From Candidatus Rokuibacteriota bacterium (GTDB taxonomy: Bacteria > JAUVQV01 > DATDCY01), in NCBI GenBank assembly GCA_031406795.1, contig JANOHV010000157.1:1-46054 (forward strand): a stretch of 46,054 nt of DNA, read 5' to 3'. Both the position numbers and the translations under genes were made by a program. Of this stretch, positions 2,641 through 34,104 are shown in pieces. Each line of letters starts with the position of its first letter. Position 1 is the first letter of the stretch. Below the pieces are notes generated by a model, which saw only the letters and a list, made by a program, of their open reading frames with translations, ran no database searches and had not been told where the DNA came from.

Positions 2641-3114
2641 ATGCAGGAATACCAGGTTCCCAAGGAAAAGGCCTCCGTCCTCGTCGAAATGCCGCCCCAC
2701 GAACCGGAGACGCGCTTCGTCTTCCTCTCCCCGTTCGCCCAGAACCACCACGGCCCGGAAACCCCCTCGGACATCTTCAACGTCCCCCAGGCCTTCATCC
2801 CGCTGTTTCGCGAAGGCGGCGAGGTGTTGCTGGCCCGCCACGACGCAATCACCTGGGTGATGATCGGCGAACCGCAGCGGACGGAATGGTATTACTACGA
2901 GACCCGCACGGGTGTTCCCGACACCAGAGTGCACCTCGAGTTCGACACCGGCGGCCACATCGACGGCAAGGTTGCCCTGATCGGTCCGGCGGGCGGCCAG
3001 CGCGTGCTCGACATCGTCAACCGCCACGAGGGTTTCCTGCACGTCGAGCGCGACGACGAACTGTTTCTTGTCAACCTCAAGCGGGTCGTTTCGATCACCC
3101 TCAAGGAACAGTAG
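2641..3114 (+). CDS. Hypothetical protein upstream of pilT, with two similar halves (possibly DUF6812-like)
   Basis: 157 aa, SD GGAGGG, ends 1 nt before pilT. The halves resemble each other (DIFNVPQAFIPL / DIVNRHEGFLHV). Confidence 0.7.
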   Translation: MQEYQVPKEKASVLVEMPPHEPETRFVFLSPFAQNHHGPETPSDIFNVPQAFIPLFREGGEVLLARHDAITWVMIGEPQRTEWYYYETRTGVPDTRVHLEFDTGGHIDGKVALIGPAGGQRVLDIVNRHEGFLHVERDDELFLVNLKRVVSITLKEQ

Positions 3115-3115
3115 C

Positions 3116-4627
3116 GTGGCCGCACTCGACAAGATTCTCGAATCCATGGCCGCCCACGGCGCCGATCGCTTCACGCTCAAGTCCGGGGAGGCGCCGCTCC
3201 TGCACACCGAACGCGGGACCAAGCCCGTCGGCTCCAGCCCGCTGAGCACCAATCGCGTGCTCGCGTACCTGCGCGAGCTGGCCGGTCCCGCGGAGCGCGG
3301 AGCCATCGAGGCGCGCGAAAGTGTCGCCTTCGCCTACCGCGATTTCACGGTCGCGGTGACCTTTCCCGGGGAAGGCGTCGAGGCCCAGGTCTGCCCATGT
3401 CCCCGGCCGGCGACCGCCGCGGCGGCGGAGGAGCCTCCCCCCGCGCCGGGTGCCCCGCAGGAAGCCCCGACCGCCGTCACGGCCAACCGCACGCAGACCG
3501 CGATGGAAGCGCACAATTCGTTCGACCCCCGAGCCGGCGGCGCGCCCCCGATCGACGAACTCTTCCGCGACATGATCGGCCGCAAAGCTTCGGACCTGCA
3601 CCTGACCATGGGCGAACGGCCGCGCCTGCGTCTCGACGGCCGGATGGTCCAGACGGACCTGCCGCCGCTGACGCCGGAGCGCATGGCCGAACTGCTCTGG
3701 CCGATCTGCTCGCCCAAGAACCGCAAGGAGTTCGAGAGCGACAGCGACACCGACTTCGCCTACGACCTGCCGGGGGTCGCCCGCTTCCGTTGCAACTATT
3801 TCATGGACCGCACCGGGATGGGGGCGGTCTTCCGCCAGATCCCCACGAAAATCCCGACCATGGAGCAGCTCGGCCTGCCCAAGGAGATCATCGACCTCTG
3901 CTGGCTCTCCAAGGGTTTCGTCGTGGTGACGGGTCCCACGGGCTCCGGCAAGTCGACGACGCTGTCGGCGCTGATCAACCACATCAACGAGAACCGCGCC
4001 GACCACATCATCACGATCGAGGATCCGATCGAGTTCGTCCACCCGAACAAGAAGTGTCTGCTCAACCAGCGCGAGATCGGCACCCACACCCAGGGGTTCA
4101 AGCGCGCGCTGCGCGCGGCGCTGCGCGAGGACCCGGACATCGTGCTCGTCGGCGAGATGCGGGATCTGGAGACGATCGGCATCGCGATCGAGACCGCGGA
4201 AACGGGCCACCTGGTCTTCGGCACGCTGCACACGACGACCGCGCCGTCCACCGTGGACCGCATCATCGACCAGTTCCCGGCGGACCGACAGACGCAGATC
4301 CGGGTCATGCTCTCCGAGACGCTCAAGGGTGTCATCGCGCAGACGCTCTGCCGCAAGGTCGGCGGCGGGCGCATCGCGGCCTACGAGGTTCTGATCGTCA
4401 ACACCGCGGTCTCGAACCTGATCCGCGAGGGCAAGACCTTCCAGATCCCCTCGCTGATGCAGACCCAGCGCAATATCGGCATGCGCACGCTCAACGATTC
4501 GCTGTTCGAACTCGTCAAGAGCAAGCAAGTCGAGCCGAAGGAGGCCTTCGTCAAGGCCGTGGACAAGAGCAGCCTGCTGGCGCTGTACGAGCGCGGCGGC
4601 ATCAGGTTCGATCCGAACCGGATGTAG
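3116..4627 (+). CDS. pilT: Type IV pilus retraction ATPase PilT with an N-terminal extension
   Basis: ASDLHL, Walker A GPTGSGKST, TIEDPIE, ALREDPDIVLVGEMRD, AETGHLVFGTLHT, AVSNLIRE. GTG start at 3116 right after the upstream stop. Confidence 0.92.
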   Translation: MAALDKILESMAAHGADRFTLKSGEAPLLHTERGTKPVGSSPLSTNRVLAYLRELAGPAERGAIEARESVAFAYRDFTVAVTFPGEGVEAQVCPCPRPATAAAAEEPPPAPGAPQEAPTAVTANRTQTAMEAHNSFDPRAGGAPPIDELFRDMIGRKASDLHLTMGERPRLRLDGRMVQTDLPPLTPERMAELLWPICSPKNRKEFESDSDTDFAYDLPGVARFRCNYFMDRTGMGAVFRQIPTKIPTMEQLGLPKEIIDLCWLSKGFVVVTGPTGSGKSTTLSALINHINENRADHIITIEDPIEFVHPNKKCLLNQREIGTHTQGFKRALRAALREDPDIVLVGEMRDLETIGIAIETAETGHLVFGTLHTTTAPSTVDRIIDQFPADRQTQIRVMLSETLKGVIAQTLCRKVGGGRIAAYEVLIVNTAVSNLIREGKTFQIPSLMQTQRNIGMRTLNDSLFELVKSKQVEPKEAFVKAVDKSSLLALYERGGIRFDPNRM

Positions 4628-5561
4628 GCGGCACGCAGCGCGGGTCCGGGGCCGCCAGGTCGCCGGCGATAAGCAGGCTCACCGCCGGACAGCCGCCGTG
4701 ACACGTGGCGTGGTGGCCGCAGGATGAGCGCGGGCAGGCGTTTTCACTGAAGTTCCTGAAGAATTCCAGCTGCGGGTGGTTCCAGATCGCCGCGAACGCG
4801 TCCGTCAGCAAATTGCCGAGCCGGAATTCCGGTTGCGAGAAAAGCAAATAACACGGGTAGACCGAGCCGTCGGGCAGCACGGAGAGTTTCGTCGTGCCCG
4901 CGGGGCAGCGCACGCCGCGCAGCCGGGCCGCGGCGTCGCCCTCGGGCACGAAGCCGTCGCACGCCACGCCCGCTGCCCGCGGGTAGCGCATGCGAAGCGT
5001 ATCGAGGCGCGAGCGGTACTCCGGGTAGGAGAGGCCGCCCTCCAGGTCGTCCGCCGACACCGGGTCGCGAAAGATCAGGAAGTACTCGGCGCCCGGTCGC
5101 GCGAGGTGCCCGGCTGCCGCCGTCGGCAGCACCCACTCCTGCGTGCAGAGGCTCTTGAGCATCGGCGATCGCCGTGCGATGAAGTCGCGCAGGGGCATCG
5201 GCAGTTCCCCTTCGTTTACCGAAACGCCGACGCGCAGCGTGGCGCGGCCGAACGTGTCTTCAAGGCGTTCGAGCACCGCGAGATCGCCGTGGCCGTTCGT
5301 ACTCAGCGTGGTGCGCATCCCGCGCGCGGCGATCGCCGCCACCAGTTCGTCGAGCCGCGGGTGCAGCGTCGGCTCGCCGCCAAGCAGATCGAGCGTTTCG
5401 ACTCCGGCGAGCTTCAGCTGGTCGAGCATCAGGGCGAATGCGGCCGGCTCGACATCAGGCTGCGGGGGCAGTCCGCGGTTGAAGCAGAAATCACAGGCCA
5501 GGTTGCAGTTCAGGGTCGGGTAGAACTGGACATAGTCCGGAGCGGAAGGCCGGACGGTCAT
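4602..5561 (-). CDS. Radical SAM protein with SPASM domain
   Basis: CNLACDFC, GGEPTLH, SPASM-type CPAG...PDGSVYPC...CPRSSCGHHATCHGGC...DPRC. ATGA overlap with the exeB stop. Confidence 0.9.
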   Translation of the reverse strand: MTVRPSAPDYVQFYPTLNCNLACDFCFNRGLPPQPDVEPAAFALMLDQLKLAGVETLDLLGGEPTLHPRLDELVAAIAARGMRTTLSTNGHGDLAVLERLEDTFGRATLRVGVSVNEGELPMPLRDFIARRSPMLKSLCTQEWVLPTAAAGHLARPGAEYFLIFRDPVSADDLEGGLSYPEYRSRLDTLRMRYPRAAGVACDGFVPEGDAAARLRGVRCPAGTTKLSVLPDGSVYPCYLLFSQPEFRLGNLLTDAFAAIWNHPQLEFFRNFSENACPRSSCGHHATCHGGCPAVSLLIAGDLAAPDPRCVPPTSGSDRT

Positions 5562-6487
5562 GGGCGCCCCCCGGCCACCCGGAAGTACCACCCTTTGAAG
5601 ACGAAGACGGCTCCCGACGAGGTGATCTCCTGAAGTTTGAGACCGGGTGCCGCCTCGCCGCCTTCGTGCAGAAGCCGGTCATCGACGCTCATCAGGCGCA
5701 ACGATGGCTCTTCGGACCAGACGTGGCCCGAGACGAGCAGCTTCGGGAGTTCGGCGCGAACCGAAGCGGGAAGTTCGGACAGTTCGAGGACTCGACCGTC
5801 TGCAGGTGGTGACTGCTCGGGCGGCGGCACCACGGGCACTGGCTCCGGAGGGCTGACCGGGGGCGCGGCTGGAATCCCGGCCGACTGCATTCCGCTCGCC
5901 GGCACCGCAATTGATGGAGCCTTCAGGCCCGGCGGCGGCGGCAGGACAGCGGGCGCCGGCGTGATCGTCGCCGGCAGCGCGGGCATCGGGACCGCCACCA
6001 TCGAGCCGGGGTCCGGGGCGGCCGGGGACGGCAATGGGGTAATGCGCGGAGGCGCCTCCGGGATCGCAACCGGGACGACGGTCGAAGCGTCCTCCCCGCG
6101 TGGAATCCGCGCGGGCGGCGCGGGCGATTTCGGCCGGTTGTCGAAGGGCTTGCGCGCAGGAACGGGGGCCGGGGCCGAAGCTGGGCCCGCCTCGACGCCC
6201 ACCGCTGCGACCGGGCGCGGGGCCACCGGGGCAGCCGGAGCTTCGGCGCGCAGCGGTATCGAAGCGGCAGCTGGCGGCTGCGCTGCATCTTCGTCGCGGT
6301 CTGCCGTTCCGAACCAGGCCCCCAGGGTTGCGGTCGCCGCGACCACGAGAAGCACCGCGGTCACAATCGCGCGCGTCGGCACGCGCGGAGTCGGGGGCTG
6401 GGGCCCGTGCACCGTGAATAGGTCCGGGACCGGGCCGGGGGGGCGCTGGCGCTCCGACTTTTTCAGCGCATCGAGAATGTAGGACAT
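5558..6487 (-). CDS. gspB: Type II secretion accessory protein GspB/ExeB
   Basis: Typical start MSYILDALKKSERQR, TM helix, Pro-rich linker, C-terminal LPKLLVSGHVWSEEP..LLHEGG..LQEIT domain. Lies 2 nt after exeA. Confidence 0.85.
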   Translation of the reverse strand: MSYILDALKKSERQRPPGPVPDLFTVHGPQPPTPRVPTRAIVTAVLLVVAATATLGAWFGTADRDEDAAQPPAAASIPLRAEAPAAPVAPRPVAAVGVEAGPASAPAPVPARKPFDNRPKSPAPPARIPRGEDASTVVPVAIPEAPPRITPLPSPAAPDPGSMVAVPMPALPATITPAPAVLPPPPGLKAPSIAVPASGMQSAGIPAAPPVSPPEPVPVVPPPEQSPPADGRVLELSELPASVRAELPKLLVSGHVWSEEPSLRLMSVDDRLLHEGGEAAPGLKLQEITSSGAVFVFKGWYFRVAGGRP

Positions 6488-24706: not shown

Positions 24707-25809
24707 GCGCGCACCTCGCCAAGCTGTTTCTCCAGCCCCTTGACCTTCTTCTTCAGCTCGTAGACCGTCTTGTACAGGTCGTCCATCTCGGAGCGCAGCG
24801 CGATGGGCAGGTCGTAGAGGTGGAGTTCCATCAGTTTGAAGGAGTGTTTGCGCACGTCCAGGGAAGCCTCGAGAAGCTCGCCCTGCATCTTCGCGTAGTC
24901 TTCCGTCTGAAAGAGCGAAGAATACGCCTTCTCGTTCACCGTGATCCAGAGGTTGAAGAACTCGCCGAAATCCTTGAACTCCTCGCCGGCGCTCACCTTC
25001 TCCGCAACGGCCGCGATCATCTTCTCGCAAGCGGCCAGACCGGTGATATACATGGTGTGCTCGAATTCGGTGTTCTTGGCGAGGTAGGCCGACAGGACGT
25101 CAAGGCTGCGCAGCAGCAGTTCGACCTTCTCGCGATCTTTCCCGACGGCGGGGATGTGGAAGACCCGCCCGACGGTGCTGTCGAAGGCGCTGAACATAGT
25201 GTGGTAGATCTTCATGAAGGCTGCGGGATGGCCTTCCATGATCTGGGGAAGATCCCGGTAGCCCCGCGCTGAGGCCTCCATCCAGGGTTGCATGAAGCCC
25301 TGCGACGAGTGGGTCCAGCTCTCGAGCAGCTTCTTGACCTGGTCGGCGAGTTCGGCCGCCGCATCCGGGTTGAACCCGAAGACACGGTCCAGCATTTCCT
25401 TGTACTTGGCCGGGTCGATCAGGTCCTTGAAGGAGTCGGTGCTGACCCCCTTCTGCTGGATCGCCTTGAAAAGTGGCAGCCACAGTTCGTAGAGCTTCAG
25501 GTAGGCGTTGGAGCTGGATAGCGATCTCAGCAGGGTCTCCCTGACGAAATTCGCGTCCCCGGCATCGCCGCCGCGGAAGGCGTCGTTCACTGATTTTTCC
25601 CAGGCAGTGTACGCGTCCGGAAAACCGCCGAAGCCGGACATCGCCCCGCCGAAGGCCGGCATGGCGCCGCCAAATCCCGGCATCGCGCCGCCGGTTGATC
25701 CGAAACCGGAGAAACCCTGCTGGAACTTCCTCGCCATGTCGCCCATGCTGGTGAAGGCGTCCTGCTGTGCCTTCATCCAGGAGTCGAGATAGTTCTCTGT
25801 GCCGCTCAT
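24703..25809 (-). CDS. phaE: Class III PHA synthase subunit PhaE
   Basis: FFNLWITVNEKAY..TEDYAKMQGEL and C-terminal LPIALRSEMDDLYKTVYELKKKVK. Coupled to phaC; SD GAGG before ATG 25809. Confidence 0.88.
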   Translation of the reverse strand: MSGTENYLDSWMKAQQDAFTSMGDMARKFQQGFSGFGSTGGAMPGFGGAMPAFGGAMSGFGGFPDAYTAWEKSVNDAFRGGDAGDANFVRETLLRSLSSSNAYLKLYELWLPLFKAIQQKGVSTDSFKDLIDPAKYKEMLDRVFGFNPDAAAELADQVKKLLESWTHSSQGFMQPWMEASARGYRDLPQIMEGHPAAFMKIYHTMFSAFDSTVGRVFHIPAVGKDREKVELLLRSLDVLSAYLAKNTEFEHTMYITGLAACEKMIAAVAEKVSAGEEFKDFGEFFNLWITVNEKAYSSLFQTEDYAKMQGELLEASLDVRKHSFKLMELHLYDLPIALRSEMDDLYKTVYELKKKVKGLEKQLGEVRA

Positions 25810-25838
25810 TCCTCGCTCCCCATCCGGCCGCAGCCGAG

Positions 25839-26192
25839 CTACTTCTTCTTCTCGGCGGTCTGCTTGAACAGTTCGGCGAGCTTGGTCACCATCTCCCGCG
25901 TCATCTCCATCTGCTTCTCGACGGTGCCCTTCCAGGTCGCCTGGATCTTCGCCGACTCGTCCGAAAAGGTCTTCGCGGAGTTCACCATCGTGGTCAGCCA
26001 GGAGTTGTACAGGCCCATCACCTCTTTGACCGGCCCTTCCTGCGAACCGCCGAGATTCATCAGCGAGGCCTGCATCTTCTTCGTCGCCTCGGCCCACTTC
26101 TCCGTGGCCTCCTTCTGGGACTTCACCCAGGTGTCCATGAAGTCCTTCTGGTTCTTCATCCAGGAATCCACGAGTTCCGTCGCCTTGTCCAT
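25839..26192 (-). CDS. Phasin-like amphipathic helical protein 1
   Basis: 117 aa, all-helical amphipathic pattern, SD AAGGAG, inside the PHA operon. Confidence 0.65.
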   Translation of the reverse strand: MDKATELVDSWMKNQKDFMDTWVKSQKEATEKWAEATKKMQASLMNLGGSQEGPVKEVMGLYNSWLTTMVNSAKTFSDESAKIQATWKGTVEKQMEMTREMVTKLAELFKQTAEKKK

Positions 26193-26309
26193 GTGCTTCT
26201 CCTTGTGTCTGAGTGTCCGTGTCGCTCACGGCGAGCAGCGATCAAAACGGAGCGCGCCCGCTCTTCTGCCGGCGCGCCCCGGGCCAAACCGGTCCGGTCA
26301 GGGAAACGG

Positions 26310-26711
26310 CTACTTCTGCGAACAGCCCGGCGGGAAGCCGGCGGTCATCTTCTGCATCATCTCCCGGGCGACATCCATCTGCTTCTCGACGGCGCTCATC
26401 CAGACTTCCTGGATCTTGCCCGAATCGTCGGCGACGGTCTTCGCGGAATTCATCATCATCGTCAGGCAGTCGCTGGAGTACCCGAGCATTTCCTTCATCG
26501 GGCCCGCCTGCGTGCCCCGCATGTCCATCAGCGGCTTTTGCAGCCCCTCCACCGCCTCGGTCCACTGCTCCATGCCCTGCTTCTGGGCCTTCGCGCAGCT
26601 CTCCATGAAATCCTTCTGGGACTTCATGCAGAAATCCATCATGTCCATCATGGTGTTCATCTCGGTCTTCATCTCGTTGCCCTTGGTTTCCTTGTTCATC
26701 GCCTTGCGCAT
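26310..26711 (-). CDS. Phasin-like protein 2, Met-rich paralog of 25839-26192
   Basis: Collinear with protein 1 (MKSQKDFM/MKNQKDFM, GPMKEM/GPVKEV, MNSAKT/VNSAKT, VEKQM). Confidence 0.65.
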   Translation of the reverse strand: MRKAMNKETKGNEMKTEMNTMMDMMDFCMKSQKDFMESCAKAQKQGMEQWTEAVEGLQKPLMDMRGTQAGPMKEMLGYSSDCLTMMMNSAKTVADDSGKIQEVWMSAVEKQMDVAREMMQKMTAGFPPGCSQK

Positions 26712-26795
26712 CTTCGTTCCCCTTTCGTTGCCTTCGGTTTCCCTAGTTGTCGTTCCTGCCCGCGCCCCCCCGGCCCGGGCGCCTCCACGCGGCCG

Positions 26796-27239
26796 CTATT
26801 CGGCCCCCACCTTCAACATCCGGAACAGATCAAAGGAGTTCTTCGCGATCTCCTTGTTGATCTCCAACTGCTTGTCGATGCTCCTCTGCCAGAGGTCCTG
26901 GGCCTTCTTCCCCCCCTCGGAGAAGAGGCTGAGCTGCAGATCGCGCATGGTGTTCCTGAGGAACGCATTCTCCTCCCGCAGCCGCTTGTTCTCCTCGAGG
27001 ACCTCGTCGTACCGGATCTTCGGGACAAAGCCGAAGATGATGAAGAAGTCGGCCATCCGCTCGTACATCTCGAGGGAGTTCGGGTACAGGCTGTTCTGCA
27101 TCATGTAGGCGCTCCAGTACCTTCTGGCCGATTCAATGCCTTCCTGGTGCATCTTCACGAAGAAATCCAAAAACCCCGTCTTGAAGAGGGGGTTGGTGAA
27201 GAGGTGCTCCATTTGCGTCCGGCATTCGTCGTTGATCAC
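26796..27239 (-). CDS. Hypothetical coiled-coil protein of the PHA operon (alternative start 27284)
   Basis: FGFVPKIRYDEVLEENKRLREENAFLR. GTG 27239 has SD GGAGG. Confidence 0.65.
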   Translation of the reverse strand: MINDECRTQMEHLFTNPLFKTGFLDFFVKMHQEGIESARRYWSAYMMQNSLYPNSLEMYERMADFFIIFGFVPKIRYDEVLEENKRLREENAFLRNTMRDLQLSLFSEGGKKAQDLWQRSIDKQLEINKEIAKNSFDLFRMLKVGAE

Positions 27240-27309
27240 GGTGCCTCCACCCTCCTGGGATCCTCCGGCCGTCGACTTCCCCATGCCCGATCCTTCCTGA
27301 TACCGGCGT

Positions 27310-27657
27310 CTAACCCCCATCGCGCTTCTCCGGTTTTCTCCCGGGCCCCGCCGCGCCATGTTCGGCGGGAGAGCCCGGCGCACTCCAGAGTGACCAGGGG
27401 TTCATGATGGCCTTTGAAACCACGTCGACGTCGGTCATGGAGCCAAGCCGCTTCAGCCACGAGCCGAGCAGACCGAAGTAGTTCTTCAGGTCCATGCCGG
27501 ACTTGACCATGAAAGGCAGGGCCCTGTTGAGATCTCTGATGTAGGAGCGTACGACATACGCGGCGTTGATGTCGGGGTCACCGAATTCAATGAGGAGCTG
27601 CTTCAGCTTCTCGTACTCATCCTCGTCCAAGCGAAGGGTGATCGACTTCAGTGCCAC
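27310..27657 (-). CDS. Putative ribbon-helix-helix-type regulator heading the PHA operon
   Basis: SD GGAGG, N-terminus KSITLRLDEDEYEKLKQLL..NAAYVVRSYIRD fits the RHH strand-helix-helix pattern. Confidence 0.55.
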   Translation of the reverse strand: MALKSITLRLDEDEYEKLKQLLIEFGDPDINAAYVVRSYIRDLNRALPFMVKSGMDLKNYFGLLGSWLKRLGSMTDVDVVSKAIMNPWSLWSAPGSPAEHGAAGPGRKPEKRDGG

Positions 27658-29349: not shown

Positions 29350-30249
29350 CTACTCCCCGATCCGGTTGCGCATGACGCCGATGCCCTCGATCTCCGTCTC
29401 GAGAAGATCGCCGGGCCGCAGGAACTCCGGGGGGGTGCGCGCAAAACCCACTCCCGCGGGCGTCCCGGTCGAGATGATGTCGCCCGCCTCGAGCGTCATG
29501 CCGAGCGAAAGCTCCTGGAGCAGGCGCGGCAGCTTGAAATAGAGCAATCCGGTGTTCGAATCCTGCTTGGTCACCCCGTTCACCCGACAGGTGAGGCGCA
29601 GGTTCCCGGGATCGATGCTGTCGGCGGTCACCAGCACCGGGCCCATGGGGCAGGTGCCGTCGAGGCTCTTGCCCTTGTGCCACTGGCCGCCGTGGCGGAA
29701 CTGCAGGTCGCGCCAGGACAGATCGTTGATCGTCGTATACCCCCAGACATGCGCCATGGCGGTCTCCGGGCTGAGGTTCTTGCCGCCGGGACCGATCACC
29801 ACGCCGAGTTCGACCTCCCAGTCGAGGGAGGTGGAGATCGAGGCATCGAAGGGGACACGATCGAAGGGACCGGTGACGGCGGTGGTCGCCTTGCTGAAGA
29901 AGACCGGCCACCGGGGAAGCTCGCGGCCGTCGCTCAGCTTCTGCGCGCCCTCCTCGAAGTGCTCGCGGTAGTTCCAGCCGACACAGAAAACATTTTTCGC
30001 AGGGCGCGGGATCGGCGCGTGGAGCTCCGCGTCAGCCAGCCTGACGGCGGAGGCGGGCGCACGCGAGGCCAGGGCGTCGAGCGCCAGGCGCGCCGCCTGC
30101 CCCCCGCGTACGATGCCGAGCATCGTTGAAAAGTCGACATCAGCAACTGGTCCGACGCCGGCCGGGATGTCGACGATCCGGTCGCCTTCGACGACGAGAC
30201 CGGGGCGCGGAGCGCCGCCGACGACGGGGGAGTAGGTGACGAGTTTCAA
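29350..30249 (-). CDS. Fumarylacetoacetate hydrolase family protein
   Basis: CVGWNYREH, LDWEVELGVVIG, NDLSWRD, KGKSLD, GDIISTGTPAGVG. TTG start with SD AGGAGG. Confidence 0.92.
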   Translation of the reverse strand: MKLVTYSPVVGGAPRPGLVVEGDRIVDIPAGVGPVADVDFSTMLGIVRGGQAARLALDALASRAPASAVRLADAELHAPIPRPAKNVFCVGWNYREHFEEGAQKLSDGRELPRWPVFFSKATTAVTGPFDRVPFDASISTSLDWEVELGVVIGPGGKNLSPETAMAHVWGYTTINDLSWRDLQFRHGGQWHKGKSLDGTCPMGPVLVTADSIDPGNLRLTCRVNGVTKQDSNTGLLYFKLPRLLQELSLGMTLEAGDIISTGTPAGVGFARTPPEFLRPGDLLETEIEGIGVMRNRIGE

Positions 30250-30524
30250 GGCTCCTCCTGGTTGCGCGGTTCTTCAGCAGCATAGTAGCCACTCGGGGTG
30301 CCCGGCATCAAGTCGCTCCTCGCGCGTCGCAGGCGCCTGCTCGCGGTTGGCGGCGTGCGCACGGCCGCGGTTCTGCGGTATCATCGGAGCGTCCGGTTCC
30401 GTCATCCCGCAGCGCGCGGGCAATCCGCCAACATCGAAGGGGGCGTCAGGGGAATGAAGACCAGGGAGATCCAGCAGAAACCAACGCCCGGCTCGCCGAT
30501 CCTGAGCCGGCGCCGCAAATTCCC

Positions 30525-30791
30525 GTGAGCGATTTTCCGAGACTCTGCGCCGCTGCGCACCTGCTGCCGTCCGACCCGGACGTGCCGCTGGGCGACGCCG
30601 ATCTGGTGCGCCTGATCTGCAGCGACTGCCCCTTCTACAAGGAGGGGGAGGACGAGGAACTCGAGTGCGGCGCCTTCATGCTCCTGCGCCACCTGCTGCG
30701 GAAGAAAACGGTGACCGTGCAGGCGATTCTCGATGCGGTGCGCGACGGGGAGAGCGCGGAGGGATCGTCGCCCTCACGCGGGGAGGGTTAA
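30525..30791 (+). CDS. Small Cys-containing hypothetical protein upstream of the radical SAM gene
   Basis: 88 aa, ICSDCPFY..ELECGAF, ends 6 nt before the radical SAM start. Start uncertain. Confidence 0.7.
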   Translation: MSDFPRLCAAAHLLPSDPDVPLGDADLVRLICSDCPFYKEGEDEELECGAFMLLRHLLRKKTVTVQAILDAVRDGESAEGSSPSRGEG

Positions 30792-30797
30792 CCGGGC

Positions 30798-32000
30798 GTG
30801 TCGCCCCCCCCGCCGCCGCAGTCGCCGGGTTTGGCAGACTGGCTGGCCCTGCCCCCCCATTGCACCCTCAAGCGCCTCGAAACGCCGGCGCTCTACGACA
30901 CCCGCGCCGACGAGCTGTACGAACTCGACGAGGAAGCTCTGCGATTTCTCGCATCCTGCCCTTCGCGCGCGGCGGCGGATCGCGCGCCGGAGACAGCGGC
31001 CCTCGTCGAATTCTGCCGCGGGGAAGGACTGCTCGTTTCCTCGAGCGCGCCAGTCGCCACGGAGGTCCCCGCGCTTCCCCCGCTGCTGCCCAGCCTGCGC
31101 TACCTGCTCGTGCATCTCACCGACCGGTGCACGCTGCGCTGCCGGCACTGCTTCATCGGGCACCAGACCGGAACGGATCTGCCGTATGCCGCGGTACTGC
31201 GCCTCGCCGGGGAGTTCGTCGAACTCCAGGGGTTGCGCTTCATCGTCTCCGGGGGAGAACCGCTGCTGCACCGGGACTTCTGGCGGCTCAACGAGCGGCT
31301 TTCGGGGTACCCGTTCCGCTCGATCCTGCTGACGAATGGCAGCTTGCTCGATCGGGCGGCGGCGCGGGCGCTTCGCTTCCACGAGGTGCAGGTGAGCCTC
31401 GACGGACCGCAGGACGCGCACGATCTGCTTCGCGGCAGCGGGAGCTTCCGCCGCGCTGTCGCCGCGCTGCGCAACCTTGCGGAGGCAGGCGTGCCGATCT
31501 CGGTCGCCACCGTCGTCTTCGCGGGAAATCTCGAGCGCTTTGACGAATTGGCGGCCATCCTGCGCGAATTCCCGCTGCGCGGCTGGTCCATCGACGTCCC
31601 CTGCCCGGCCGGCTCCATGGCTGACCACCCCGCGCTGCTCCCCGATCCGGTGCGGGCCGCCGCACTCATGGCGCGTTCGCACGGCGGCGGCTTCTACGGC
31701 TCCAGCGGCGGCTACGCCTGCGGGGCGCACCTGGCTGCCGTCATGGCGGACGGCACGATCGACAAGTGCGGCTATTTCACCAGCCTTCGGTCCGGTCAGG
31801 CCAGCGAGGGGCTGACGGCCGCCTGGGCGCGCCTGCCCCGGTGGCGCCTCGAGGAGCTCTCCTGCACCTGCGCGCACCTGGCGGAATGCCGCGGCGGCTG
31901 CCGGTTCCGTGCGCAAGCCCACGGCGACCTGCTCGGCCCCGACCCCGCCATGTGTTACCAGCGCGGGGTGCCCGTCGGCGGCGACCGCCGCGGCTCTTGA
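30798..32000 (+). CDS. Radical SAM/SPASM peptide-maturase-like protein with N-terminal RRE (PqqD-like) domain
   Basis: N-terminal LKRLETPALYDTRADELYELDEEALRFL..LVEFCRGEGLL, CTLRCRHC, SGGEPLLH, QVSLDG, SPASM CGAH..DKC..CTCAHLAECRGGC..DPAMC. Confidence 0.88.
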   Translation: MSPPPPPQSPGLADWLALPPHCTLKRLETPALYDTRADELYELDEEALRFLASCPSRAAADRAPETAALVEFCRGEGLLVSSSAPVATEVPALPPLLPSLRYLLVHLTDRCTLRCRHCFIGHQTGTDLPYAAVLRLAGEFVELQGLRFIVSGGEPLLHRDFWRLNERLSGYPFRSILLTNGSLLDRAAARALRFHEVQVSLDGPQDAHDLLRGSGSFRRAVAALRNLAEAGVPISVATVVFAGNLERFDELAAILREFPLRGWSIDVPCPAGSMADHPALLPDPVRAAALMARSHGGGFYGSSGGYACGAHLAAVMADGTIDKCGYFTSLRSGQASEGLTAAWARLPRWRLEELSCTCAHLAECRGGCRFRAQAHGDLLGPDPAMCYQRGVPVGGDRRGS

Positions 32001-32117
32001 CAACCTCAGGACCTACGATAGTAGGCAGGTCTGCCAGGCGATCGCCGGTCTGCTCGCTCCCGGACGCTGACCGCCGCTGCGCAAGGGTTGATGATCGCGC
32101 GCTGCGGGCCATCTCCC

Positions 32118-32146
32118 TTGACACGCCGAGGGGTCGGATATAAGTT
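32118..32146 (+). promoter_or_regulatory. Sigma70 promoter of the 20-aa peptide gene
   Basis: Consensus TTGACA (32118-32123), 17 nt spacer, TAAGTT. Confidence 0.6.
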
Positions 32147-32218
32147 CGAATCCCGGGTTGACGACTTCTACGGATTGCGCCGGGACAGGCGCTTCATGCA
32201 GGAAAGGAGGTGGGTCCC

Positions 32219-32281
32219 ATGAAGATCACCAAGATGACCAAGCAGGCCTCGACGCTGTGCAAGTGCAAGAGCAGCTGTTAG
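32219..32281 (+). CDS. 20-aa Cys-rich peptide MKITKMTKQASTLCKCKSSC, candidate RiPP precursor; absent from the ORF track
   Basis: SD AAAGGAGGTG just upstream of ATG, almost all codons end in G/C like host genes, promoter upstream and terminator downstream. Confidence 0.75.
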   Translation: MKITKMTKQASTLCKCKSSC

Positions 32282-32302
32282 TCGCTCTCTTCACCGATTG
32301 AC

Positions 32303-32340
32303 GGAGACCCCGGAGGGCATCCCTCCGGGGTCTCCTGTCT
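32303..32340 (+). terminator. Intrinsic terminator-like hairpin after the peptide gene
   Basis: Perfect 15-bp stem GGAGACCCCGGAGGG-CAT-CCCTCCGGGGTCTCC followed by TGTCT. Confidence 0.7.
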
Positions 32341-32409
32341 CGAACGGCGGGGAACTCCATCGTTGCGCTGTGGTAGAATCCACGGGTTTTTAAAGCAACG
32401 GAGGAACCC

Positions 32410-34104
32410 ATGAGCGACGAGACCACGTCCGAGACCGCCCCCCGTGACTTCATCCGCGAGATCGTCGCCACCGACGTCAAGGCCGGCGTCAACGGCGGCC
32501 GCGTGGCGACGCGGTTCCCGCCCGAACCGAACGGTTACCTCCACATCGGGCACGCCAAGTCCATCTGCCTGAACTTCGGCGTCGCCCGGCAATTCGGCGG
32601 CACCTGCAATCTGCGGCTGGACGACACGAACCCGGCCAAGGAGGAGGGGGAGTACGTCGACTCGATCATCGGCGACGTCCGCTGGCTCGGCTTCGACTGG
32701 GGGGAGCGTCTTTATTACGCTTCGGACTACTTCGAGCGGCTCTACGAGTTTGCCGAACAGTTGATCCGGCGCGGCAAGGCCTACGTCGACGACCAGAGCG
32801 CCGACGAGATCCGCGAACGGCGCGGCACGCTCACCAACCCCGGCGAGGACAGCCCCTGGCGCGACCGGAGCGTCGAGGAGAATCTCGACCTCTTCCACCG
32901 GATGCGCGCCGGCGAATTCCCCGACGGCGCCCGTGTGCTGCGCGCGAAGATCGACATGGCGGCGCCCAACATCGTGCTGCGCGACCCGACGCTCTATCGC
33001 ATCAAGCGCGCCACGCACCACCGCACCGGCGACGCCTGGTGCATCTACCCGATGTACGATTTCGCCCACTGCCTCTCCGATGCCATCGAGGGGATCACGC
33101 ACTCGATCTGCACGCTGGAGTTCGAAATCAACCGCCCGCTCTACGACTGGGTCATCGACAATGTGGACGCCCCCGCCCGCCCGCGCCAGTACGAGTTCGC
33201 GCGGCTGAATCTGACCTACACCGTCATTTCGAAGCGCAAGCTGCTCCGGCTCGTTCAGGGCGGCACCGTCTCCGGCTGGGACGACCCGCGGATGCCGACC
33301 CTCTCGGGGCTGCGCCGCCGCGGTTATACCCCCGAGGCGATTCGCGCCTTCTGCGACAAGATCGGTGTCGGCAGGCGCGACAGCACCGTGGACGTCGCGC
33401 TGCTCGAGCACTGCCTGCGCGAGGACCTGAACCGGCGTTCGCCCCGGCTGATGGCGGTGTTGCGCCCCTTGAAACTGGTCATCGAGAATTACCCCGAGGA
33501 CGAGGTCGAGGAACTCGACGCCGTGAACAACCCCGAGGACCCGGCGGCCGGCGGCCGCAAAGTCCCCTTCTCCCGCGAACTCTTCATTGACCGCGAGGAC
33601 TTCCGGGAGGACCCGCCCAAGGGGTTCCTCCGGCTCGCCCCGGGGCGCGAAGTGCGGCTGCGCTACGCGTATTTCGTCAAGTGCGTCGGCGTCGTCAGGG
33701 ATGCGGCAGGCGAAATCGCCGAGGTGCGCTGCACCTACGACCCGGCGACGCGCGGCGGGGACGCGCCGGACGGGCGCAAGGTGAAAGTGACGATGCACTG
33801 GGTGTCGGCTGCCCGTGCGCATACCGCCGAGGTTCGCCTCTACGACCGCCTCTTCGCGTTGGAGAGCCCCGACGAGGCGGAAGATTTTCTCTCGACGCTC
33901 AACCCGAATTCGCTCGAGATCCTGCAGGGCTGCCGGGTCGAACCCGCGCTCGCGCAGGTGCCGCCCGGAGCCATCGTCCAATTCGAGCGCGTGGGTTATT
34001 TCGCCGCCGATCTGCGTGATTCCCGACCGGATGCCCCGGTCTTCAACCGGGCCGTGACTCTGCGCGATGCCTGGGCGAAGATGCAGAAGGCGCCTCGTCC
34101 TTGA
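32410..34104 (+). CDS. glnS: Glutamine--tRNA ligase
   Basis: [51 protein letters not shown]. Extended -10 TGGTAGAAT at 32371-32379. Confidence 0.96.

Follow-up and report, generated by a model that had tools for sequence, protein, structure and literature searches.

A predicted RiPP-like system linking a conserved 20-residue cysteine peptide to a radical SAM/SPASM enzyme and a small CxxC...C protein

The subject of this report is a very short cysteine-containing peptide gene and the radical S-adenosylmethionine (SAM) enzyme gene that precedes it in a 46,054-nucleotide (nt) stretch of DNA from a Candidatus Rokuibacteriota bacterium (GenBank assembly GCA_031406795.1, contig JANOHV010000157.1, positions 1 to 46,054; this whole stretch is called the window below). 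The 20-codon open reading frame (ORF) is a real gene under selection at the protein level, and it is very likely tied in function to the enzyme. Together with a small CxxC...C protein encoded immediately upstream, the two probably form a three-gene system resembling those that produce peptides made on ribosomes and modified after translation (RiPPs). In such a system, the peptide would be modified by an enzyme that has a domain like a RiPP recognition element (RRE) at one end and a SPASM-type region at the other, and the product would probably be intracellular. Judged from sequence, we read this as a new RiPP-like family within a known kind of system. The initial annotation of this DNA had described the radical SAM ORF and a peptide ORF 218 nt downstream, and both are confirmed in the sequence with small coordinate corrections. 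The three genes are as follows.

30525..30791, + strand: accessory-protein ORF, 88 amino acids (aa), from GTG at 30525 to TAA ending at 30791
30798..32000, + strand: radical SAM/SPASM enzyme ORF, 400 aa, the presumed maturase, from GTG at 30798 to TGA at 31998-32000 (Pfam, AlphaFold2 model)
32219..32281, + strand: peptide gene MKITKMTKQASTLCKCKSSC, 20 codons plus stop (ATG at 32219, ORF 32219-32278, TAG at 32279-32281)

Conservation of the peptide gene and its co-occurrence with the enzyme

On the + strand, the 88-codon ORF is followed after a 6-nt gap by the 400-codon radical SAM ORF, and then, after a spacer of 218 nt, by the 20-codon ORF, whose ATG at 32219 lies exactly 218 nt past the enzyme stop. 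Homologues of the peptide were first located by translated search beside radical SAM orthologues. A 20-column profile (A2) built from 9 homologues gives a single match in the window's own genome (E 1.3e-8). Members of the peptide family are present at 56 of the 152 loci examined, and 48 distinct DNA sequences from all of these loci encode 42 distinct peptides. The reading frame is 20 codons long, or 19 in one Nitrospirota clade whose peptides are without the second residue. The consensus can be written M-x-I-[KRT]-K-[VIL]-x-K-x-x-[AS]-x-T-C-K-C-K-[SG]-S-C.

Six residues (I3, C14, K15, C16, S19, and C20) are invariant, and each is specified by two to five synonymous codons. S19 is written with both TCN and AGC codons, and all three stop codons are used among the peptide genes. 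Pairwise comparison of the seven C-terminal codons yields 2968 synonymous differences versus 819 that are non-synonymous. This combination of invariant residues, varied codons, and synonymous excess indicates that selection acts on the amino-acid sequence. The codons of the window peptide are also host-like, as had been proposed, given that 19 of 20 end in G or C and that neighboring genes have G+C fractions at third codon positions of 0.82-0.93.

The distribution of the peptide follows that of the enzyme. A mixed set of 61 genomes (six from the window's phylum, including its own, and 55 from other families) was searched at E ≤ 0.01 for the peptide and E ≤ 1e-30 for the enzyme. Both occur in seven of these genomes, one (G023) has just the enzyme, no genome has just the peptide, and the other 53 are without either, which gives seven peptide-bearing and eight enzyme-bearing genomes; within the window's phylum, both are found in all six. 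An even sample of 151 Nitrospirota genomes, with the enzyme threshold set at E ≤ 1e-40, contains the peptide in 56 and the enzyme in 58. All 56 peptide-bearing genomes carry the enzyme, and the peptide is present in none of the 93 genomes that do not have it. In the two enzyme-only Nitrospirota genomes, the enzyme is located at a contig end, with 84 nt left after the match in one (G099) and the gene cut at the contig start in the other (G168). The conservation of the peptide and its co-occurrence with this radical SAM clade, on which the initial annotation had staked its proposal, are therefore both observed.

Physical linkage is common as well. In 43 of the 56 Nitrospirota genomes, the coordinates show a copy of the peptide gene on the strand of the enzyme match and 19-267 nt downstream of it. 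Two or three peptide matches occur in nine of the 56. In records titled Dehalococcoidia, Actinomycetes, and Nitrospirae, too, the enzyme gene is directly followed by that of the peptide. As a control, no such peptide appeared at any of 74 non-orthologous radical SAM loci obtained with the same scan, or at any radical SAM paralogue of the window's own genome (four loci).

The peptide is thus found in over a third of sampled Nitrospirota and in every genome sampled from the window's phylum, and it seems to have escaped notice. None of nine peptide sequences of the family occurs among about 15 billion predicted proteins. Six C-terminal heptapeptide strings are found in no paper of the openly searchable literature. 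In that same literature, searches on ranthipeptides, SCIFF, or radical SAM/SPASM enzymes in Nitrospirota-type hosts gave general gene-cluster surveys or nothing, and no description of this system. Because gene callers skip 20-codon genes, the radical SAM enzyme is likely seen by genome mining as an orphan that has no substrate.

The enzyme and the chemistry proposed for it

Three regions of the enzyme bear on its assignment as a peptide maturase.

30831..31082, + strand: N-terminal RRE-like winged-helix domain, about residues 12-95 (AlphaFold2 model, structural alignment)
31128..31151, + strand: CxxxCxxC (C111, C115, C118), for the radical SAM [4Fe-4S] cluster (sequence, alignment)
31719..31955, + strand: SPASM-type auxiliary-cluster region, C308-x15-C324 ... 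C356-x-C358-x5-C364-x3-C368 ... C386 (cysteine pattern)

The Pfam family Radical_SAM (PF04055) matches the enzyme at 71.7 bits versus a cut-off of 29.5 (E 1.1e-19), and Pfam sees the core only. All 65 NCBIfam matches are far below their cut-offs. The best of these is the mycofactocin maturase MftC, at 89.3 bits versus 265, and PqqE reaches 47.7 bits versus 381, with both matches covering only the radical SAM core. Similarly, a sequence search of solved structures returns core-only matches, led by SkfB (E 3.9e-17). In public sources, the 398 relatives at E ≤ 1e-20 are called 'radical SAM protein', some with 'SPASM domain' added, and the JGI name on many relatives is 'radical SAM protein with 4Fe4S-binding SPASM domain'.

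More can be learned from the predicted fold. An AlphaFold2 model of the enzyme, built from 13 sequences, has a mean pLDDT score (predicted local distance difference test) of 85.7, and its N-terminal domain (residues 15-82) scores about 88-93. This domain is modeled with strands at residues 15-17, 22-25, 31-34, and 39-42, helices at 45-52, 57-60, and 64-75, and a further strand at 80-82, a predicted layout that is that of the RRE winged helix, in which a three-stranded sheet precedes three helices over about 80-90 residues. After this domain come a core that resembles a barrel and a C-terminal part rich in cysteine. Peptide maturases rank first both with Foldseek and with a second aligner, and the leading matches are listed here with their root-mean-square deviations (rmsd).

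SkfB: Z 25.9, rmsd 4.3 Å, 325 residues aligned, model residues 20-380
SuiB: Z 24.6, rmsd 4.0 Å, 358 residues aligned, model residues 15-392
CteB: Z 22.6, rmsd 3.1 Å, 280 residues aligned, model residues 95-390
anSME: Z 22.4, rmsd 3.4 Å, 283 residues aligned, model residues 99-392

PqqE is placed below these peptide cross-linking enzymes, with a Z score of 19.7. The SuiB alignment must take in most of the N-terminal domain, because 358 residues are aligned but residues 94-392 amount to only 299. An RRE had been suggested for this domain in the initial annotation, and the modeled RRE-like fold, together with SuiB and SkfB alignments that run from the N-termini, agrees with that suggestion.

The cysteines of the enzyme are strongly conserved. 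The CxxxCxxC motif is intact in 36 of 36 assessable orthologues, and the SPASM cysteines C308, C324, C356, C358, C364, C368, and C386 are invariant in 38 of 38. The SPASM motif, which binds two auxiliary clusters, has the form Cx9-15Gx4C ... Cx2Cx5Cx3C ... C. All seven cysteines of this pattern are present, with C308-x10-G-x4-C324 in the first part and a first spacing (C356-C358) of x1 to x5, not x2. C269, which alone could supply an eighth ligand, is a cysteine in 29 of the 38 orthologues. In the thioether-forming enzyme CteB, one site of the first auxiliary cluster is open for a substrate cysteine, and seven conserved cysteines without a conserved eighth ligand would fit a CteB-like open site.

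It is quite likely that the peptide is the substrate of the enzyme. The way in which the peptide is conserved would suit a basic leader at the N-terminus (x-I-K/R/T-K-V-x-K) followed by a core at the C-terminus (T-C-K-C-K-S/G-S-C), in keeping with an earlier suggestion of a basic leader and a CKCKSSC core. In the window, the presumed leader would comprise residues 1 to about 12 and the presumed core TLCKCKSSC. The peptide N-terminus presumably resembles that of ribosomal protein bL36. In the proposed mechanism, the 20-residue peptide would be a ribosomally made precursor whose basic, strand-prone N-terminus (M-x-I-K/R-K-V-x-K, with alternating hydrophobic and basic residues) is bound by the RRE-like domain as an added strand. 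The core T-C-K-C-K-S-S-C would then be presented to the SAM cluster, and the enzyme would use a 5'-deoxyadenosyl radical and two auxiliary Fe-S clusters to modify it. The foremost candidate for the modification would be the formation, within the peptide, of at least one thioether link from a Cys sulfur to a carbon of a neighboring residue (sactionine or ranthionine type), a tentative choice with something near an even chance of being correct. Sactipeptides and ranthipeptides are defined by such a bond, in which the Cys sulfur is joined to the alpha, beta, or gamma carbon of a second residue. Epimerization, other cross-links, or oxidation may occur instead. Aromatic cross-links of the streptide or darobactin type are ruled out, because the peptide has no aromatic residue. 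The small CxxC...C protein would serve as a dedicated partner, which may bind a metal or an Fe-S cluster or act as a chaperone.

The product would probably remain in the cell as the whole modified 19- to 20-mer, with a housekeeping role in redox, metal, or sulfur handling or in signaling, like SCIFF in clostridia. No conserved protease or exporter was seen beside the peptide-enzyme pair at the loci inspected, as the initial annotation had remarked for the window. Because no such genes travel with the pair and the peptide sequence is nearly frozen across phyla, the product is probably intracellular. Likewise, a near-frozen sequence without export or immunity genes suggests a cellular function rather than an antibiotic. 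With three genes and a synthetically accessible substrate of 20 residues, the chemistry can be settled quickly.

Several points weigh against the interpretation that the peptide is the substrate of an RRE-radical SAM-SPASM enzyme. First, searches up to E 10 give no match to Pfam SPASM (PF13186) in residues 285-400, and none to PqqD (PF05402) or to any other Pfam family in residues 1-101, so that both end domains are called from the modeled fold and the arrangement of cysteines. For recognition by an RRE, a leader of some 12 residues is also short, and the present evidence does not separate thioether formation from other radical SAM chemistry. Furthermore, G023, a genome that is 96% complete, encodes the enzyme (43% identity) along with an accessory protein of the two-repeat form, and no peptide was found in the genome or within 800 nt past the enzyme. 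Co-occurrence counts overstate the number of independent events, because related genomes are not independent samples.

The remaining difficulties concern gene position and expression. The peptide does not adjoin the enzyme in 13 of the 56 Nitrospirota genomes. Four of these have it on the contig of the enzyme but no closer than 109 kb, and nine have it on another contig, where some cases may reflect assembly breaks. These 13 cases also indicate that co-occurrence is not only inherited gene order, since the genes have been retained together without adjacency. In one genome (G061), a peptide copy directly precedes a gene that looks by eye like hypE, of hydrogenase maturation; this copy (L099:1498-1560, - strand) is one of two that are unlinked, and it is about 70 nt upstream of the hypE-like gene. 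Finally, only one of 11 sequencing runs that hold part of the window is an RNA library. Its sole near-identical contig lies at 30500-30724, and none covers the peptide. This metatranscriptome contig (run X6, 267 nt) matches the start of the 88-aa gene with three differences, and DNA carry-over is possible.

Some genomes show stop codons inside enzyme matches. In two incomplete genomes, the enzyme orthologue is split over frames, as three pieces in one (G001:C18:147893-149071) and by a TGA and a frame change in the other (G005:C3:777612-778283). These splits may be assembly errors or decay. In the AT-rich genome G052 (L009:47-1382), the radical SAM gene is preceded by a partial ORF that looks by eye like a cysteine desulfurase, by an IscU/NifU gene, and by a TusA gene, the last two being assigned by Pfam.

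The CxxC...C protein, rival substrates, and known systems

The initial annotation had called the system minimal. The pair of enzyme and peptide is borne out, but the word minimal is not, because the CxxC...C protein (30525-30791), which that annotation did not mention although its coordinates took in the gene, occurs together with the enzyme. All eight enzyme-bearing genomes of the mixed set have this protein, and none of the 53 others does; the weak match in G052 is a true family member of the two-repeat form, located on another contig (L153:958-1353). Among the 151 Nitrospirota genomes, it was detected in 37, of which 36 carry the enzyme, and the exception is a 15-residue match at E 0.01. 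The resulting 36 of 58 enzyme-bearing genomes is a lower bound, as the profile was built from the window's clade. According to coordinates, the gene adjoins the enzyme in 26 of those 36 genomes; three of the 26 have the window's arrangement (upstream, same strand), and in the other 23 the two genes are divergent. Nitrospirota members are mostly 110-135 residues long and carry the motif in two copies. The accessory protein is a third co-occurring component that belongs to no known family.

Residues C32, C35, F37, E47, C48, and L54 of this protein are invariant (alignment A3). Neither the one-repeat nor the two-repeat form has an NCBIfam match or anything meaningful in Pfam, and all 171 close relatives are 'hypothetical' or unnamed. 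A search of 1.84 billion proteins at E ≤ 0.001 gives 153 cluster representatives of the family, and almost every one has 47-158 residues. It adds a new family to the small cysteine proteins that partner radical SAM enzymes. The predicted structure has four helices (pLDDT 76), and a search of 48,161 chains gave a best Z score of 3.1, with no assignable fold. A weak C-terminal match in a 474-aa signaling protein is uninformative, and co-folding of the enzyme with the 88-aa protein gave a score of 0.00, which speaks neither for nor against binding.

Such close co-occurrence raises the question of whether the CxxC...C protein, in its one- or two-repeat form, is the true substrate of the enzyme. 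The peptide would then be an unmodified cysteine micro-protein of the same pathway, for example a metal or sulfur carrier. In the mixed set, the protein tracks the enzyme as tightly as the peptide does, and G023, for which no peptide turned up, also has it. Modification of a cysteine-rich protein by a radical SAM/SPASM enzyme is in print (PMC13692751). In addition, a 483-aa protein (P0049) from a single 2.2-kb contig joins the accessory domain to the radical SAM enzyme, although this may be a true fusion, a lost stop codon, or a sequencing error. Against these clues, structure prediction makes the accessory protein a folded helical domain, not a leader plus core, whereas it is the peptide that shows the leader and core conservation pattern. 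It is also mostly divergently transcribed in Nitrospirota, where it was detected in 36 of the 58 enzyme-bearing genomes versus 56 for the peptide, although the profile, derived from distant relatives, may overlook members. On balance, this exchange of roles is improbable, and the peptide is retained as the likelier substrate.

A bolder extension of the proposal is that peptide, enzyme, and CxxC...C protein together make an unrecognized intracellular, peptide-derived cofactor or a molecule for metal or sulfur handling. This extension is doubtful. If true, the molecule would be comparable in standing to pyrroloquinoline quinone (PQQ) or mycofactocin, and its precursor, at 19-20 residues, would be among the shortest known for radical SAM enzymes. 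The molecule would also be conserved with hardly any change across Nitrospirota, Dehalococcoidia, Actinomycetes, the small phylum of the window, and other groups.

Another possibility is that the peptide is only a scaffold, from whose C-terminal residues a small molecule is cut to give a redox cofactor or metal chelator, as PQQ is derived from PqqA and mycofactocin from MftA. Suggestive parallels exist, in that MftC is the best NCBIfam match of the enzyme and PqqE also matches, the precursor is as short as PqqA, and conservation is housekeeping-like with no exporter. The parallels with PqqE/PqqD/PqqA and MftC/MftB/MftA extend to RRE-guided radical SAM/SPASM chemistry and an intracellular product, both of which are proposed for the window system. 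However, the MftC and PqqE matches (89 of 265 and 48 of 381 bits) are core-only and far below cut-off, and peptide cross-linking enzymes outrank PqqE structurally. Across the loci inspected, no peptidase and no additional tailoring gene goes along with the pair, and no other pathway genes adjoin it in the window, where the neighbors encode an FAA hydrolase, an M24 peptidase, glutaminyl-tRNA synthetase (GlnRS), and a cytochrome c. The peptide also differs from the known precursors, because it has neither the Glu nor the Tyr of the PqqA motif and ends in Ser-Cys, not in the Val-Tyr of MftA. Excision of a small molecule from the peptide therefore seems quite unlikely, and a modified, intact peptide is the preferred product.

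Several better known systems can be compared with the one proposed here. The system of SCIFF and its ranthipeptide maturase CteB/Tte1186 likewise combines an RRE-radical SAM-SPASM enzyme with a small conserved cysteine-rich precursor, has no dedicated protease or exporter, and is widespread within its lineage. It differs in that SCIFF has about 45 residues and six cysteines versus 19-20 residues and three cysteines for the window peptide, and in that the window system has the additional CxxC...C protein and occurs in other host phyla. The SCIFF maturase model is absent from the best 25 of the 65 NCBIfam matches of the enzyme, and none of nine family peptides matches any NCBIfam model, SCIFF TIGR03973 included, at E up to 10. 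Pfam likewise gives no meaningful match for the peptide. Indeed, the peptide had not been recognized as SCIFF, PqqA, or mycofactocin in the initial annotation, and no curated model now places it there.

SkfB, a sactipeptide maturase of a kind that also includes AlbA-type enzymes, has an N-terminal RRE and forms a Cys thioether. It is both the best structural match and the best sequence match among solved structures, the latter over the core only. Its identity to the enzyme is only 15%, its auxiliary domain is of the smaller 'twitch' type in contrast to the seven SPASM cysteines of the window enzyme, and it belongs to a bacteriocin cluster with export and immunity genes that the window locus does not have. 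The streptide maturase SuiB aligns over its full length, including the RRE domain, and its precursor SuiA is also short. SuiB links Lys to Trp, whereas an aromatic residue is missing from the window peptide. A fourth example is CrpC of Methanococcus voltae, an RRE-radical SAM-SPASM enzyme that installs ranthionine links on CrpA, a large cysteine-rich protein whose leader-like N-terminus spans 47 residues and which has ten repeats of 17 residues each (PMC13692751). The architecture is the same as that of the window enzyme, and the cysteine-rich substrate is encoded nearby, but CrpA as described there is unrelated to the window peptide in size and motif (PMC13692751). CrpC is assigned to TIGR04463 (PMC13692751), which is absent from the best 25 of the enzyme's 65 NCBIfam matches. 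Overall, the sequence comparisons suggest a system that resembles SCIFF/CteB or sactipeptide systems and is a member of neither, and that is not PQQ or mycofactocin.

Expression signals and gene neighborhood

The initial annotation had listed a Shine-Dalgarno sequence, a promoter, and a perfect hairpin around the peptide gene, and all of these elements are present.

32118..32146, + strand: promoter-like TTGACA-N17-TAAGTT (TTGACA 32118-32123, 17-nt spacer, TAAGTT 32141-32146)
32203..32212, + strand: Shine-Dalgarno sequence AAAGGAGGTG, 6 nt ahead of the ATG
32303..32335, + strand: hairpin, likely the terminator of the peptide transcript (arms 32303-32317 and 32321-32335)

A ribosome-binding site of the GGAG or GGGG type can be read by eye within 20 nt ahead of the start in all 37 listed peptide genes. 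TTGAC and TAnGnT are kept upstream of the peptide gene in an alignment of all four genomes of the genus. A consensus promoter scan listed no site in 30000-33000; the promoter-like pair was missed because its -10 hexamer matches TATAAT at only three of six positions. The hairpin consists of 15 perfect pairs and a 3-nt loop, followed by a weak T tail, and it aligns in two of three sister genomes. Relatives that were inspected also have a hairpin after the peptide stop, and in the AT-rich ones a T run follows.

Within the genus, the ORF and its hairpin are directly upstream of glnS, an arrangement that would suit a regulatory leader peptide or attenuator of that gene, or an ORF that is a chance frame. 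Both explanations are contradicted by selection at the protein level and by the co-occurrence of peptide and enzyme in Nitrospirota, and they were rejected as extremely improbable. The peptide accompanies the radical SAM gene where glnS is not downstream, and it contains only one Gln. In addition, glnS has a conserved element of its own after the hairpin. At 32366-32381, between hairpin and glnS, the sequence CGCTGTGGTAGAATCC includes an extended -10-like element (TGgTAGAAT) that is kept in all four genomes of the genus, with one mismatch in G003, and that is probably the glnS promoter.

An Rfam scan around peptide genes found no RNA family. At six loci (L133-L137 and L097), the motif CCCTATGAA(A/G)GGGAGG is located about 40 nt upstream of the peptide start, and in L133-L137 it is preceded by CTCATGAAGAGGT. 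The CCCTATGAA motif is conserved in the 5' leaders of peptide genes that do not adjoin the enzyme, and it has no Rfam match.

The surroundings of the three genes in the window, which has a G+C content of 67%, are housekeeping genes. On the opposite strand, Pfam identifies an FAA-family hydrolase and an M24 peptidase, and downstream are the genes for GlnRS (glnS), a class III cytochrome c, a tRNA, and glutamyl-tRNA synthetase. The arrangement varies among close relatives, and in three sister genomes of the genus the peptide is about 1.6 kb downstream of the enzyme with a Redoxin-plus-TPR gene between them. One example is a 426-aa, exported-looking Redoxin/AhpC-TSA and TPR protein (L015:4381-5661), and the same site is occupied in G001 and G003. 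The window genome is without this gene at 32001-32218, and its only counterpart is a paralogue (31% identical) on contig C13.

In Nitrospirota, a gene for a large TPR-repeat protein can be found directly 3' of the peptide gene on the same strand (L018:4299-6074, L020:4303-6093, L133:2-1432 on the - strand, and L136:2-1441 on the - strand). This includes the Nitrospirota clade in which the peptide is unlinked from the enzyme. None was seen downstream of the peptide in the Dehalococcoidia, Actinomycetes, or G052 loci. The TPR-repeat protein may reflect inherited gene order or may be a fourth partner.

Two other features of the window lie outside these genes. At 25767-27407, both strands contain long overlapping ORFs with repetitive, low-complexity translations. 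Pfam has no match for those that were tested, at 26796-27383 and 27310-27657 on the - strand. The other feature is a further radical SAM/SPASM gene, unrelated to the one above (4602-5591, - strand, 329 aa), in which Pfam Radical_SAM and SPASM both match and which adjoins a type II/IV secretion ATPase gene (3068-4627).

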